From Candidatus Gastranaerophilales bacterium (GTDB lineage: Bacteria > Cyanobacteriota > Vampirovibrionia > Gastranaerophilales > Gastranaerophilaceae), in the NCBI GenBank assembly GCA_944325525.1, contig CALVAK010000009.1, positions 23,574 to 87,573 of the forward strand: a stretch of DNA of 64,000 nucleotides. Reading direction: 5' to 3'. Under the pieces are notes generated by a model, which was given only the letters and a program-made list of their open reading frames with translations, ran no database searches and was not told where the DNA came from. Of the stretch, positions 302-3,997 are shown in pieces (positions within the stretch are counted from its first letter, which is position 1; every line of letters starts with the position of its first letter). The position numbers and the translations under genes are program-made.

Positions 302-1765
302 ATGAGTGACGAGAACAAGAATGTAGAAAATAAACAAGAAGAAAATCAAAATAGACAAGAATGCAATAAAATATGGTGGAAAAATTGTTGGGTTAAAACC
401 CAACCTACAGGCTTTAATTTAATATTTATGTGTTTGGTATCAATTTTAATAATTCCAAACGGCAATATATCTTTTGCAAGTAATTTTGATAAATTAGAAG
501 GACATTTTGAAGTAATAACTACAAAAGAAAAAATAATCGGAAATCTCATAAAACTAAAAGATGGGAGGGTTTTAGGAAACGGAAAAGGCGAAGAAGAAAG
601 TCCGTTATTAAATAAGAAAATATATATTTTTGATCCTAAAACATATAAAATTACTAAATTAGGAGAATATAACAGTTATTTAGAAAATGCAAATAAAGGT
701 ATAATGCTTAATAATGGAAAAATTTTATATGTATGTCCATATATACATTCTCCCGAATCTGAGTTTAATGGTCCAATTGGAATATTAATAAGAGATAAAG
801 TAATAAGTGATTATCGAAATAATAATAAAACAGAAAGACCTGCAACTATGTCAATTCCAGACTACAGAAGAAAGGTTGAGAAGTTAGCTTGGCAACACTA
901 TAAAAATTTGTCAAAAAAAGAAAGAGAACAGATTTTTATGCCTTTTCTTAAAGAAAATCCGGAGCTTTTACAAAAATATAAAGAATATGAAGAAAAATAT
1001 GAAAAATCAATGTATGCACAGTTACTTGATCCCGTAACAGGAAAATTTGAGTATACAGGTAAAGTAAATATTAGAAGAAACTATACAAATAAAATATTAT
1101 TAAAGAATGGAAATGTTCTTATTTGGGGTGGAGTTTTTCTCTCTGAAGAAAATATATATGGGAATATAGAAGAAGAACAAAAAAGAAATGAAAGTATAAT
1201 AGAAATGTATAATCCGCAAACAGGACTTTTTTCTGTTGTTAATGATACACAAAAAATTAATTTTTTAACAGAATATCCGATATTTCTTGATGATGGAAGG
1301 ATATTTTATTATGGGACTATATATAATCCGGAAAATAATACTTTTTTTCAGTCTGAATATAAAAATCATTTAAGAGGTTGCTTTAATTTCATCAAATTAA
1401 AGAATGGTAATATTTTACTTAGCGGATTAAGTGAGGGAAAGCATAATTCAATAATAGAAATATATAATCCAAATACAGATGAACTTAAAAAAATAGGTGA
1501 TTTGCTTATTCCGAGAGGTGAAAAATATTCAATGACCCTTTATAATGATGATATTGCATTAATTTATGATGGTACAAATTATAACAGATGTGATTATAGC
1601 GGATGTTATCGTGAAGAAAGAATGGAAATTTTTAATATAAATACAGGAGAACAAAAAGTATTAAAATTAAAACTCAAAGAGAAAATCAATTCGCCAATAA
1701 AATTAGATGATAACAGAATAATGTTCTTATCGAACGGAAAAATAAAATTATTTTCATTAAAATAA
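302..1765 (+). CDS. Kelch-like beta-propeller repeat protein with short cytoplasmic tail and one TM anchor (array paralog 1)
   Basis: ORF 269..1765. The ATG at 302 gives an MSDENKN leader shared with the paralogs at 2105 and 4164, with AAGG about 10 nt upstream. Hydrophobic segment GFNLIFMCLVSILII. Recurring blades LKDGRVLGNG, LNNGKILYV, LKNGNVLIWGG, LDDGRIFYYG, LKNGNILLSG, LDDNRIMFLSNG. Confidence 0.55.
   Translation: MSDENKNVENKQEENQNRQECNKIWWKNCWVKTQPTGFNLIFMCLVSILIIPNGNISFASNFDKLEGHFEVITTKEKIIGNLIKLKDGRVLGNGKGEEESPLLNKKIYIFDPKTYKITKLGEYNSYLENANKGIMLNNGKILYVCPYIHSPESEFNGPIGILIRDKVISDYRNNNKTERPATMSIPDYRRKVEKLAWQHYKNLSKKEREQIFMPFLKENPELLQKYKEYEEKYEKSMYAQLLDPVTGKFEYTGKVNIRRNYTNKILLKNGNVLIWGGVFLSEENIYGNIEEEQKRNESIIEMYNPQTGLFSVVNDTQKINFLTEYPIFLDDGRIFYYGTIYNPENNTFFQSEYKNHLRGCFNFIKLKNGNILLSGLSEGKHNSIIEIYNPNTDELKKIGDLLIPRGEKYSMTLYNDDIALIYDGTNYNRCDYSGCYREERMEIFNINTGEQKVLKLKLKEKINSPIKLDDNRIMFLSNGKIKLFSLK
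385..410 (-). repeat. GTAG-hairpin element copy 1 (reverse orientation), inside codons 28-37 of paralog 1
   Basis: TTGTTGGGTTAAAACCCAACCTACAG. The reverse complement is CTGTAGGTTGGGTTTTAACCCAACAA. Positions 381-409 are identical to 2072-2100 (29/29). Confidence 0.9.
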
Positions 1766-1777
1766 AAGGAGAAATAA

Positions 1778-1969
1778 ATGACTACTTCAGATACAATTAC
1801 AGGAATGTATAATGAAGCGAAAATTGAATATGATAATACCGCTATTTATAAAGATGATAGCGGAACAAGGCTAATAACAGCCTTGGGGAATTATAAAGTC
1901 TGTAGGTTGGGTTTTAACCCAACATCAAGAAATTGGGATATTGAATCAAAATTAGCAAAAGTTGCATAA
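1778..1969 (+). CDS. small ORF 1 of array; shares an N-terminal module with ORFs 3551 and 5709 and runs into the repeat element
   Basis: Strong RBS AAAGGAG upstream. Motif IEYDN..IY..D.GTRLITALGN is shared with the other two small ORFs. The C-terminal VCRLGFNPT is encoded by the repeat at 1900-1924. Confidence 0.4.
   Translation: MTTSDTITGMYNEAKIEYDNTAIYKDDSGTRLITALGNYKVCRLGFNPTSRNWDIESKLAKVA
1900..1924 (+). repeat. GTAG-hairpin element copy 2 (forward), forms the 3' end of small ORF 1
   Basis: CTGTAGGTTGGGTTTTAACCCAACA. GTAG at 1902-1905 is followed by the hairpin GTTGGGT-TTTA-ACCCAAC at 1906-1923. Positions 1897-1925 are identical to 3943-3971 (29/29). Confidence 0.9.
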
Positions 1970-2075
1970 AGTTACGAAATAATGTAATTAAGAACAAAGG
2001 GAACAATGTTAATGAACAATGAAAATAATGAAAATAAGCAAAATATAGAACAAGAACAAAATAATAACAAGAAAA

Positions 2076-2100
2076 TTGTTGGGTTAAAACCCAACCTACA
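2076..2100 (-). repeat. GTAG-hairpin element copy 3 (reverse), 4 nt upstream of the ATG at 2105
   Basis: TTGTTGGGTTAAAACCCAACCTACA. Confidence 0.9.
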
Positions 2101-2104
2101 AGCT

Positions 2105-3526
2105 ATGAGTGACGAGAACAAGAATATAGAAAATAATCAAGAAGAAAATCGAAATAAACCAGAAGACAATAGAAACTGGTGGAGAAAATTGTTGGCTTTA
2201 AACCCAACCTACGGGTTTATTATATTTTTGACTTTTATATTCCAAGCTAGTTTTGTTTGTGCTACCACTAATTATGATTATATAAATGGAACTTTTGAGA
2301 AGATTAAAATTGATATAAAATCTATCGTTTCAAAACCAATAAAAATAGGTAATGAAGTGTTGTTTATTGGAGAAAATTATGTCTATATTCTTCAAGAAAA
2401 TGGAAATATAAAGAAAATAGAACAAAAAATTAAAAATGCTAAAAATTATTCAAGTATCAAATTAAATGACAATAACATTTTATTTGTTGGTGCATCAAAT
2501 TTATTACCTTCAGAAAAATTTAGAGATGAGATATATAATATTATTTTTAGAAATAAACCTAATTCATATTCAAAAGTAAAACGATATAATTTATTAACAG
2601 AAAGAGAAAAAGAAGAATTTTATCTTCCTTTTTTTAAGAATGACGCTAAGTTCTTAGAAGAATATAAAAATTACGTTAAAGAATATGAAAATTCAATGTA
2701 TGCAATATTATATAATGTAAAAACTAATGAATATAAAAAGGTGGGAAAAATTAATGTTAGAAGAAGTAACCCAAAGCTTTTGTTGCTTGAAAATGGTAAT
2801 GTTTTAATTTGGAATGGATATGCTATTGCAGGAAAACAGCATGAAACCGAAACTTTTGAGCTATATGACTCAAGTACTAAAAAATTTATAATTCTAAAAG
2901 ATTTGAATTGTAAAAACTGTTCTGTCTTTGAGCTAAAAAATAATGAAATTTTTTCTTCTAAAGGTGAAATATATAATATAAAAACAAAAAATTTAAAGAA
3001 GTTGACTGAAACATATTGGTATAATCCAATTGTTATTAATGGTGAAATGATACTAAATGTTTCTGGAGAATTATATGACCATAAAACAGGTAAAATTCAT
3101 AGAGTAAAAAATTTTCATTTAAATAACCATCAGAAAGTTTTAAAACTTCAAAATAATAAAATCTTATTTAATAGTAAATTGTCTGATATTAACATATACA
3201 ACATAAAAAACGACATTGTTGAAGCACAATGTTCATTTCTTGCAAAGAGAACAGATAATACATTTAATATGCTTCTACTAAATAACGGTCAAGTATTGTT
3301 TTTTGGTGGTCATTATAATGCACATAAAAATAACTCTATTAGTCAAATTTTGAATTCAGAAGGGTATTATCAAAATAAATTAGAGTTATTTGATCCCGAA
3401 TTAAATCAAACAAAACTAATAAAACAAAGCTATTCTTCGTTTTTATTAAATCCAATATTACTTGATAATGGCAAAATCCTTTTTACATCTAAGAATGAAT
3501 ATATACTTTTTATTCCAAAAAAATAA
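2105..3526 (+). CDS. Kelch-like beta-propeller repeat protein, TM-anchored (array paralog 2)
   Basis: ORF 2006..3526. The ATG at 2105 restores the MSDENKNIENN leader homologous to 302. An alternative start at 2006 has an AAAGGGA RBS. TM segment GFIIFLTFIFQASFV. Blades LENGNVLIWNG, LNNGQVLFFGG, LDNGKILFTS. Confidence 0.55.
   Translation: MSDENKNIENNQEENRNKPEDNRNWWRKLLALNPTYGFIIFLTFIFQASFVCATTNYDYINGTFEKIKIDIKSIVSKPIKIGNEVLFIGENYVYILQENGNIKKIEQKIKNAKNYSSIKLNDNNILFVGASNLLPSEKFRDEIYNIIFRNKPNSYSKVKRYNLLTEREKEEFYLPFFKNDAKFLEEYKNYVKEYENSMYAILYNVKTNEYKKVGKINVRRSNPKLLLLENGNVLIWNGYAIAGKQHETETFELYDSSTKKFIILKDLNCKNCSVFELKNNEIFSSKGEIYNIKTKNLKKLTETYWYNPIVINGEMILNVSGELYDHKTGKIHRVKNFHLNNHQKVLKLQNNKILFNSKLSDINIYNIKNDIVEAQCSFLAKRTDNTFNMLLLNNGQVLFFGGHYNAHKNNSISQILNSEGYYQNKLELFDPELNQTKLIKQSYSSFLLNPILLDNGKILFTSKNEYILFIPKK
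2189..2214 (-). repeat. GTAG-hairpin element copy 4 (reverse, 23/26 match), inside paralog 2 just before its TM segment
   Basis: TTGTTGGCTTTAAACCCAACCTACGG. It sits at the same position relative to the WW..TM junction as copy 1 does in paralog 1. Confidence 0.75.
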
Positions 3527-3550
3527 ATTTACTTTAATACGAAAGGTTAA

Positions 3551-3997
3551 GTGTGTAAGATGTCTACAACTAATGAAACAAATACTGAGATCGGTGGAAT
3601 TGAGTATAACAAGAATTATATATACTCTCAAAATGATGTTGATACAAGATTAATTGATGTCTTGGGAAATCTTAACAAATTGGAAGCAGCTGGTGCAAAA
3701 GGACTTATAGAAGGAGAAAATTTTACTATTCCAAGAAATGGAAATATTAATGATCCTGTACATTTTCAAATTATAAAAGTACATGAAAATAAGTTTAATG
3801 GGTTTTGTGGTGCTATAATTCAAAACTTAGATACAAAAGAAAATATATTATGGTGCGATGGTTCTAAAGGATTTGATAATCCACATACATTTAATAATGA
3901 CTACGACAAAATAGTTGATTGGGTAATAAATGATGTATTAGGAGTCTGTAGGTTGGGTTTTAACCCAACATTAAAGGAATTAAAACAAGCGGCATGA
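3551..3997 (+). CDS. small ORF 2 of array; resembles the N-terminal part of an alpha/beta-hydrolase (lipase class 3 / DUF2974-like) gene, truncated at the repeat element
   Basis: Shares IEYNKNYIYSQNDVDTRLIDVLGN with the other small ORFs. The segment FCGAIIQNLDTKENILWCDGSKGF...DWVINDVLG resembles the strand preceding the nucleophile elbow in lipase-like folds, but no GxSxG follows. The ORF ends in repeat-encoded VCRLGFNPT. Confidence 0.35.
   Translation: MCKMSTTNETNTEIGGIEYNKNYIYSQNDVDTRLIDVLGNLNKLEAAGAKGLIEGENFTIPRNGNINDPVHFQIIKVHENKFNGFCGAIIQNLDTKENILWCDGSKGFDNPHTFNNDYDKIVDWVINDVLGVCRLGFNPTLKELKQAA
3946..3970 (+). repeat. GTAG-hairpin element copy 5 (forward), forms the 3' end of small ORF 2
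   Basis: CTGTAGGTTGGGTTTTAACCCAACA. Confidence 0.9.

Follow-up and report, generated by a model that had tools for sequence, protein, structure and literature searches.

A GTAG-tagged palindrome in a Kelch-like gene array of a Gastranaerophilales bacterium as a probable REP element of a RAYT transposase system

The gene array described here lies at the left end of a 64-kb window (the whole stretch of DNA analysed, 64,000 nucleotides) from the Candidatus Gastranaerophilales bacterium assembly GCA_944325525.1 (contig CALVAK010000009.1, positions 23,574 to 87,573 of the forward strand). It contains five copies, named A to E, of a short palindrome preceded by the tetranucleotide GTAG, which is very probably a repetitive extragenic palindrome (REP) of the kind associated with RAYT genes (REP-associated tyrosine transposases, also TnpA_REP). 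The array occupies positions 1-6300, is AT-rich (about 25% GC) and encodes three paralogous Kelch-like proteins (K1, K2 and K3, with Kelch_6 matches), which have an N-rich N-terminal tail and a transmembrane (TM) helix and share about 25-30% pairwise identity; a small open reading frame (ORF; S1, S2 and S3) comes after each K gene, all on the forward strand. K1 (302-1765), with its N-terminal tail and TM anchor, is followed by the 63-aa S1 (1778-1969), which runs through copy B; these two, like K3 and S3, are given as in the ORF list. K2 (2006-3526) has the start typical of the family, MSDEN, at 2105, and a 33-codon N-terminal extension ahead of it that holds copy C, and S2 (3560-3997; 145 aa) is, by strain comparison, a truncated form of a gene for 243 aa (P0165). 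K3 (4164-5687) has a leader without REP and is followed by the 80-aa S3 (5709-5951), with a long form of the repeat downstream. At the left end of the array, a 5' module on the forward strand (48-384) comprises a short upstream ORF (uORF, from 165), a terminator-like hairpin (240-265) and the MSDEN leader. At the right end, a tRNA-Pro(TGG) gene on the reverse strand (6218-6294), the sole match in an Rfam scan of positions 1-7000, forms the boundary of the array, an arrangement that would fit a variable island at such a gene.

A scan of the window with the 22-mer GTAGGTTGGGTTTTAACCCAAC gave exact matches at 387-408(-), 1902-1923(+), 2078-2099(-) and 3948-3969(+) and a two-mismatch match at 2191-2212(-); 100 dinucleotide-preserving shuffles gave no match, so that none is expected by chance. 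In full, copy A (385-410, reverse; CTGTAGGTTGGGTTTTAACCCAACAA on the minus strand) is located in the N-terminal tail of K1, past the conserved leader and ahead of the TM helix, and copy D (2189-2214, reverse), a 23/26 variant with a TA centre and one stem-breaking substitution, occupies the homologous position in K2. Copy C (2076-2100, reverse) lies 4 nt upstream of ATG 2105 of K2, copy B (1900-1924, forward) near the 3' end of S1 and copy E (3946-3970, forward) within the coding sequence of S2. The inward-facing copies B(+) and C(-) are separated by a spacer of 151 bp (1925-2075). Identity extends over 29/29 nt between 1897-1925 and 3943-3971 (AGTCTGTAGGTTGGGTTTTAACCCAACAT) and also between 381-409 and 2072-2100. 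The other 60 kb of the window contain no further copies and, when up to 6 mismatches are allowed, a single chance-level 6-mismatch match besides overlaps. In addition to the five short copies, a degenerate long form is located at 5976-6060 (forward), with the arms GTAGGTTGGGTT and AACCCAAC about 55 nt apart and an inner hairpin between them.

In the element, GTAG stands directly 5' of the palindrome GTTGGGT-TTTA-ACCCAAC, of which the loop TTTA takes positions 12-15. For single-stranded DNA the fold is a hairpin of -6.4 kcal/mol (z about -3) whose stem measures 7 bp and whose loop 4 nt, or 8 bp and 2 nt when one more pair is counted. The dinucleotide before GTAG is CT in copies A, B and E, TT in C and CC in D; on the 3' side of the stem, every copy has CA. 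The five near-identical copies, the two 29-nt identities, the 23/26 variant and the hairpin had all been described in an earlier note on this DNA, and they were recovered by the scan, by re-alignment of the coordinates and by DNA folding. An integron attC site was considered as well. Such sites have the organization R''/L''...L'/R' (RYYYAAC...GTTRRRY), measure 57-141 bp, carry extrahelical bases and lie next to intI. By eye, GTTGGGT and ACCCAAC presumably fit the attC core-site consensus; this candidate was rejected on the order of the two motifs, which is inverted with respect to attC, on the unit of only 18 bp and on the lack of an integrase among the window ORFs.

All five copies are contained in listed ORFs, and the codon phase differs among the three reverse copies: it is 1 in copy A (NCWVKTQPT), 0 in copy C (IVGLKPNLQ, only when translation starts at ATG 2006) and 2 in copy D (LLALNPTY). 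The forward copies, B and E, share phase 1, an open frame that gives VCRLGFNPT in copy B; S1 stops 14 codons after copy B and S2 8 codons after copy E. The phase of the REP in the leader also differs among members of the family (loci from other genomes are given here by L numbers), with WWKNVGLKPNL in L065, WWKKLLGLNPTY in L107 and L069, and WWKNCWVKTQPT in K1. Because three different phases are in use among the reverse copies, it is the DNA and not the peptide that is conserved, and a protein-level motif is ruled out. The earlier note had also placed the conservation at the DNA level, and the three phases are stronger evidence for it than the note's own argument, that the flanks are much more diverged. 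The latter is true of the gene bodies (about 28% aa identity) but not of the 83-nt leader upstream of A and D, which is about 87% identical between K1 and K2.

The same note had pointed to in-frame translation in both orientations as unusual for REPs. All five copies do lie in ORFs, with the reservation that copy C needs ATG 2006, but translation is not unusual for the class: intragenic REPs that are translated in-frame are known, and they are found in excess at ORF N-termini and, for more than 10%, at ORF ends (PMC3733652; Di Nocera et al. 2013). Of the three frames on either strand, two are free of stops in the canonical element. Read in the phase of copy D, the canonical sequence would give G-TTG-GGT-TAA, and the TA-centre variant of D removes this stop. 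Since two thirds of the frames are open, the frames differ among copies, and the sites are ORF ends or a cytoplasmic tail of low complexity, translation of the element is probably an incidental, tolerated by-product, and open-frame copies alone would persist in expressed genes.

The occurrences in related genomes, which the earlier note had proposed to count, were obtained by scanning GTAGGTTGGGTTNNAACCCAAC against GTDB species, each represented by a single genome. The 22-mer is present in at least 119 genome stretches, many of them from Gastranaerophilales, Vampirovibrio and other Melainabacteria metagenome-assembled genomes (MAGs), and the copies can be spread over six or more contigs of one Gastranaerophilales MAG. 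Other carriers include Azospirillum-labelled soil MAGs (70% GC), Methylophagaceae, Moraxellaceae and Kangiellaceae as well as Neisseriaceae, Poribacteria, cyanobacteria and Desulfatiglandales. With the centre dinucleotide left free, the 22-mer is present in at least 6 phyla, in DNA of 24% to 74% GC, and the centre differs among copies (TT, TA, TC, GA, GC and others). At the AT-rich loci among the matches listed, 64/80 exact copies are intergenic when ORFs of 100 aa or more are counted, and 4 extend over a stop codon; in L145, L153 and L030 the REP supplies the stop of the upstream ORF, as the TAG of GTAG. The proteobacterial copies often form tight doublets with another GTAG palindrome in inverted orientation, such as GTAGGTTGGACTTCAGTCCAAC or GTAGGTTGGGTTGAGCGTCAGCGAAAACCCAAC. 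On a Methylophagaceae chromosome (L074), the 22-mer is part of a tandem array with a period of 62 bp. Viral contigs gave no match to the element. The long form has the consensus AGTCTGTAGGTTGGGTT, followed by about 55 nt with the inner hairpin CAAAATC-ttt-GATTTTG and by AACCCAACAG, that is, the same two arms around a large loop. It is multi-copy and present in both orientations in relatives (L019, L024, L064, L065, L100 and L119), and in L119 and L064 it directly precedes the 5' flank of a RAYT gene.

The physical association with RAYT genes is best seen in L111, where exact REPs at 5484(+) and 6100(-) enclose a 177-aa ORF (5520-6053, reverse). This ORF is a Y1 transposase (Pfam Y1_Tnp, PF01797) that scores 157 bits on NCBIfam NF047646, the REP_Tyr_transpos equivalog (cutoff 80), and matches the E. 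coli TnpA_REP structure PDB 4ER8 with E = 1.5e-22. The order REP(+)-RAYT-REP(-) is found in L111, L137, L145 and L153, in differing genomic contexts, and one-sided in L095; the distance from RAYT to REP is 17-70 nt in the four two-sided loci except on the left side of L137, where it is about 890 nt. Inside this last unit, the left REP is separated from the RAYT gene by a Gp49/HigB-like and antitoxin-like gene pair (3345-3921). Remnants of RAYT genes are also located beside REPs, consisting of the first 28 codons in L046 and L064 and the first 83 codons in L119, and a 62%-identical RAYT in L152 is flanked by variant REPs which keep the head GTAGGTTGGGT and have a longer stem. The RAYT has 294 homologues with E <= 1e-20, of which the organism-named ones are mostly from Melainabacteria (for example HIS88017.1 of Ca. 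Avigastranaerophilus faecigallinarum), and the RAYT that adjoins the 22-mer in Aliikangiella is only about 41% identical to that of Gastranaerophilales. Thus the assignment of the element to the REPs of the RAYT/TnpA_REP class, made in the earlier note from its anatomy, is borne out by the inverted exact copies that flank RAYT genes in related Gastranaerophilales. RAYT genes also stand directly beside pairs of K-family and S-type genes in L153 (1432-3524), L145 (1976-4581) and L095 (3720-6313). The order in L153, REP(+)-RAYT-REP(-)-MSDEN K gene-50-aa ORF-REP(+), mirrors that of the window, B(+)-151 bp-C(-)-K2-S2-E(+), with the RAYT gene at the position of the B-C spacer. Neither this spacer nor the tail after copy B, both considered as a decayed RAYT gene and rejected, has significant nucleotide or peptide similarity to RAYT loci.

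Among the RAYT-associated REPs that have been listed are those of H. influenzae (GTAGGGTGGGCTTTAGCCCACC) and Coxiella (GTAGGTTGGGCTGAGCTTGCGAAGCCCAAC) (PMC2817692, Table 1; Nunvar et al. 2010). The element is two compensatory stem-pair changes, towards A:T, away from the former and close to the latter (GTAGGTTGGGC...GCCCAAC; PMC2817692). Group 3 TnpA_REP acts on short perfect palindromes after GTAG and cleaves CT or CA on either side, and T12, T13 and A15 are essential in the loop T12T13T14A15 of the Marinomonas REP (PMC8266576; Corneloup et al. 2021). With this group 3 REP the element shares the TTTA loop at positions 12-15 and the perfect short stem, and the CT 5' of copies A, B and E and the CA 3' of all five match the known cleavage dinucleotides and are thus candidate cleavage sites. 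The GTAG superfamily and the units named REPtrons have also been described (PMC3733652; Di Nocera et al. 2013). As in these, a 5' GTAG stands beside a palindrome of 20-40 nt, the copies are multiple, mostly extragenic and often past stop codons, and inverted copies surround a Y1-HUH RAYT gene (here in relatives). The window differs from them in that its copies are clustered in one gene array, inside ORFs, and that the RAYT is found in relatives only; besides, the REP families of PMC3733652 are mostly confined to a species or genus, whereas the 22-mer of the element is common to several phyla. Neither the host clade (Gastranaerophilales/Melainabacteria) nor the AT-rich sequence of the stem was found in the REP literature searched, where GTAGGTTGGG appeared only in unrelated primer and aptamer papers and GGTTGGGTT combined with 'extragenic' gave no match. 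The studies of GTAG-tagged REPs and RAYT/TnpA_REP are said to include one by Messing from 2012.

Two other groups of palindromes invite comparison. Rickettsia palindromic elements (RPE) and intragenic GTAG/CGTC REPs are likewise short palindromes that are translated in-frame, are tolerated in non-critical segments and are frequent at termini; RPE are about 100-150 bp long and lack a known cognate transposase, and in contrast to them the copies of the element hold a conserved position in a paralogous leader, in three phases. In common with REPINs and BIMEs, which are inverted REP doublets, the GTAG ends of B(+) and C(-) point outward, as in REP pairs around RAYT genes, and the proteobacterial copies of the 22-mer form tight doublets with a second GTAG palindrome. 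The spacer between B and C is unique and measures 151 bp, compared with the short conserved spacer of REPINs, and the Gastranaerophilales family has short and long (about 85 nt) single-hairpin forms.

The surroundings of the copies show a recurrent organization. In related genomes the layout is long REP, 5' module with MSDEN leader, REP(-), TM helix and variable K body, small ORF and REP(+). The 5' module has 83-95% nucleotide identity with that of other Gastranaerophilales species, whose TrpRS protein is only about 85% identical; this homology stops at or just past copy A, and the K bodies cannot be aligned as DNA. The REP of the leader has decayed in L065 (WWEKFLELKQNY) and is not present in the leaders of K3 and L003. 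In the 5' module, the uORF from 165 encodes MKKILIFKISEGS, followed by a stop, and the hairpin at 240-265, which is strong, lies just ahead of the K1 start; L125 has an in-frame fusion of the uORF with a K3-like body. Exact-protein database look-ups of K1 (487- and 498-aa versions) returned no record. The guess, made from sequence, that S2 could be the N-terminal portion of a class-3 lipase was abandoned, as its full-length homologue P0165 has no Pfam family; only the unrelated neighbour in L003 has a sub-threshold Lipase_3 match, together with RTX repeats. The rest of the window is occupied by housekeeping genes (TrpRS, FabF, ETF, NADH dehydrogenase, FlhB, TIM and others). Its TrpRS has about 83% identity with proteins named Candidatus Gastranaerophilales, in accord with the origin of the DNA. 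The window also contains two large ORFs, 14441-19813(-) of 1790 aa and 25733-30883(+) of 1716 aa, the first of which is without a precomputed Pfam family in the matching contig record.

Comparison of strains locates several mosaic junctions in the array. From position 1692 on, the window is 100% identical to ENA ERZ24773227 BRZ_AG NODE_248, and the window and four sample assemblies (L120, L134, L135 and L136) are collinear across all five copies at 99.9-100% identity. L150, which is 97.8% identical to window 2104-3945, carries the intact 243-aa S2 (P0165) with a REP immediately after its stop. Its homology to the window ends between 3945 and 3946, at the 5' edge of copy E (CTGTAGG), and copy E stands in place of exactly 25 nt of S2 coding sequence, so that the length is unchanged (window 3946-3992 versus L150 1920-1966). 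The 22 nt past copy E match L150 at equal offset in 15/22 positions, the best of about 800 positions (background frequency 2.6e-4), and the left junction GGAGT fits the extended REP consensus (G)GAGTCY-GTAGG. A JGI metagenome scan for further S2 alleles with the 25-mer left of copy E gave no match. Another strain, L124 (99.7% identical), lacks K1 through S2, and its TPR-repeat gene, which directly precedes the K3 upstream region, ends in GCGGCATGA, the same as the end of S2 in the window. As S2 and this TPR gene share their final codons, the array joins the K3 upstream region at the microhomology GCGG (window 3989, L124 7316), 18 nt right of copy E. In L125 and L150, 5' modules have been swapped by recombination within the conserved leaders. 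The five short copies and the degenerate long one sit in a hypervariable K/S array beside tRNA-Pro, at or near the boundaries between conserved and variable modules.

Taken together, the element is very probably a GTAG-tagged REP of a REP/RAYT system (REPtron) that is widespread in Gastranaerophilales (Melainabacteria), because of its GTAG-palindrome anatomy, its dispersal and its flanking of RAYT genes in related genomes, all three of them directly observed, and because of its conservation at the DNA level. Judged from sequence, it would be recognised by the domesticated RAYT that stands beside identical copies in related gut Melainabacteria. By analogy with the characterised systems of E. 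coli, Stenotrophomonas and Marinomonas, the single-stranded top strand would fold into a hairpin of 7-8 bp, and the 5' GTAG would serve as recognition or guide sequence for the Y1-HUH transposase. The enzyme would cleave the flanking CT/CA dinucleotides and could rejoin the strands, and such cleavage and rejoining would spread and homogenise the copies.

Several points weigh against this assignment. The 64-kb window has no RAYT gene, and searches of its ORFs confirmed the statement of the earlier note that it has neither RAYT nor recombinase. Its copies are five only, all within 4 kb, and a high copy number is seen in relatives only; the action of RAYT on this REP is a prediction from other systems. 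The copies in the K leaders hold a conserved position across paralogues and species, unlike random REP insertions, and this fixed position may hint at an added role. Leader copies that were not used to find their locus carry 1-2 mismatches per 22 nt, against a leader divergence of 5-17%; as they are no better conserved than the leader, their conservation may be carried by the leader module itself. Finally, we know of no REP mechanism that explains the equal-length replacement of 25 nt by copy E.

The alternatives to the REP assignment start from features of the same array. The earlier note had likened the copies to crossover sites of a serine invertase, and hix/gix-like or shufflon sites by which a site-specific invertase switches or shuffles the Kelch-like genes through inversion would suit the copies in both orientations inside ORFs, the 18-bp dyad with its asymmetric TT/AA centre and the hypervariability of the array between strains; hix, gix and sfx sites are likewise short dyads in both orientations, and shufflon sites lie inside coding sequence. 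Those systems, however, have nothing that corresponds to the GTAG tag or to the association with RAYT, and the sequence that flanks RAYT genes and is mostly intergenic elsewhere does not have a constant centre dinucleotide. No serine or tyrosine recombinase (resolvase/integrase) domain was found in 22 window ORFs of 170-375 aa, nor was a recombinase seen beside the related arrays examined, and the collinear window and four assemblies, a limited sampling, show no orientation variants. Simulated inversions between A and B, C and E, and A and E stop after 45, 46 and 38 aa and yield no productive fusions, so that the invertase proposal of the note is very improbable. Slimmer still is the chance that the element is a locally duplicated piece of the gene family, whether left over from duplication or gene conversion or conserved as a peptide motif, with no mobile or protein-bound identity. 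Such a relic would fit the confinement of the five copies to 4 kb of one paralogous array, the similarity of the A/D upstream leader and the mismatches in leader copies mentioned above. The earlier note had named confinement of the element to this locus as the mark of a duplication relic, and this is refuted by the distribution of the 22-mer in at least 119 unrelated loci across phyla and across 24% to 74% GC; moreover, the copies are mostly intergenic, flank RAYT genes and are read in three phases, and the 29-nt identity between B and E is not accompanied by any detected similarity of their flanks.

Two further proposals would add to the REP assignment rather than replace it. The hairpins could act on RNA or transcription, B and E as 3' stabilisers or partial terminators of the K-S transcripts and A, C and D as terminators of antisense transcription into the promoter module. 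A terminator scan does detect A, C and D, each followed by AATTTT(T/C) on the minus strand, the region has 6 terminator-like sites versus 1.3 expected, REPs of relatives often lie 0-3 nt after a stop codon or supply it (L145, L153 and L030), and most REPs in the literature are just downstream of ORFs (PMC3733652). Such a role is unlikely, though the less so of the two: the hairpin is weak as DNA, in sense orientation B and E lack a T-run, and the conserved GTAG and the RAYT association are left unexplained. It is rather doubtful, too, that the genes for Kelch-like membrane proteins and their small partners form integron-like arrays for which REP/RAYT has been recruited to set boundaries and exchange cassettes; in such arrays REPs would mark cassette ends, after the promoter/leader module and after the S gene, and RAYT, often at the cassette head, would catalyse or stimulate swapping by single-strand cleavage and rejoining or by REP-stimulated recombination. 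RAYT genes or remnants beside K-family genes (L095, L145, L153, L119 and L064), the recurrent cassette long REP-5' module-REP(-)-K-S-REP(+), the leader REP position kept across species and the mosaic breakpoints at or near REPs (3945/3946, 3989 and 2104) speak for it. Yet breakpoints 2104 and 3989 are 4 and 18 nt off the element, at ordinary homology or microhomology (leader sequence and GCGG), most REP copies in these genomes lie outside K/S arrays, RAYTs also occur away from K genes (L111 and L137), and comparison of the arrays shows no actual exchange event. REPs cluster in any case around the RAYT genes of recently arrived REPtrons (PMC8266576). If this proposal were true, the 25-nt replacement by copy E would be the footprint of a still-unknown mechanism of REP installation, and the REP/RAYT of Gastranaerophilales would not be merely selfish or domesticated 'junk'.

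The class, described since 2010, and its translated members are already known. What the element adds is the extension of REP/RAYT systems to Melainabacteria, the non-photosynthetic sister group of cyanobacteria, with short and long forms of the repeat. For annotation, peptides such as VCRLGFNPT, CWVKTQPT, VGLKPNL and LLGLNPTY in Gastranaerophilales proteins are to be read as REP-encoded and not as protein motifs. The comparison of filled and empty sites at copy E, where a REP takes the place of exactly 25 nt of coding sequence, may be of use for work on how REPs disseminate. An exact 22-nt REP that is common to at least 6 phyla, despite a RAYT identity of about 41%, bears on how constrained the recognition of REPs is.

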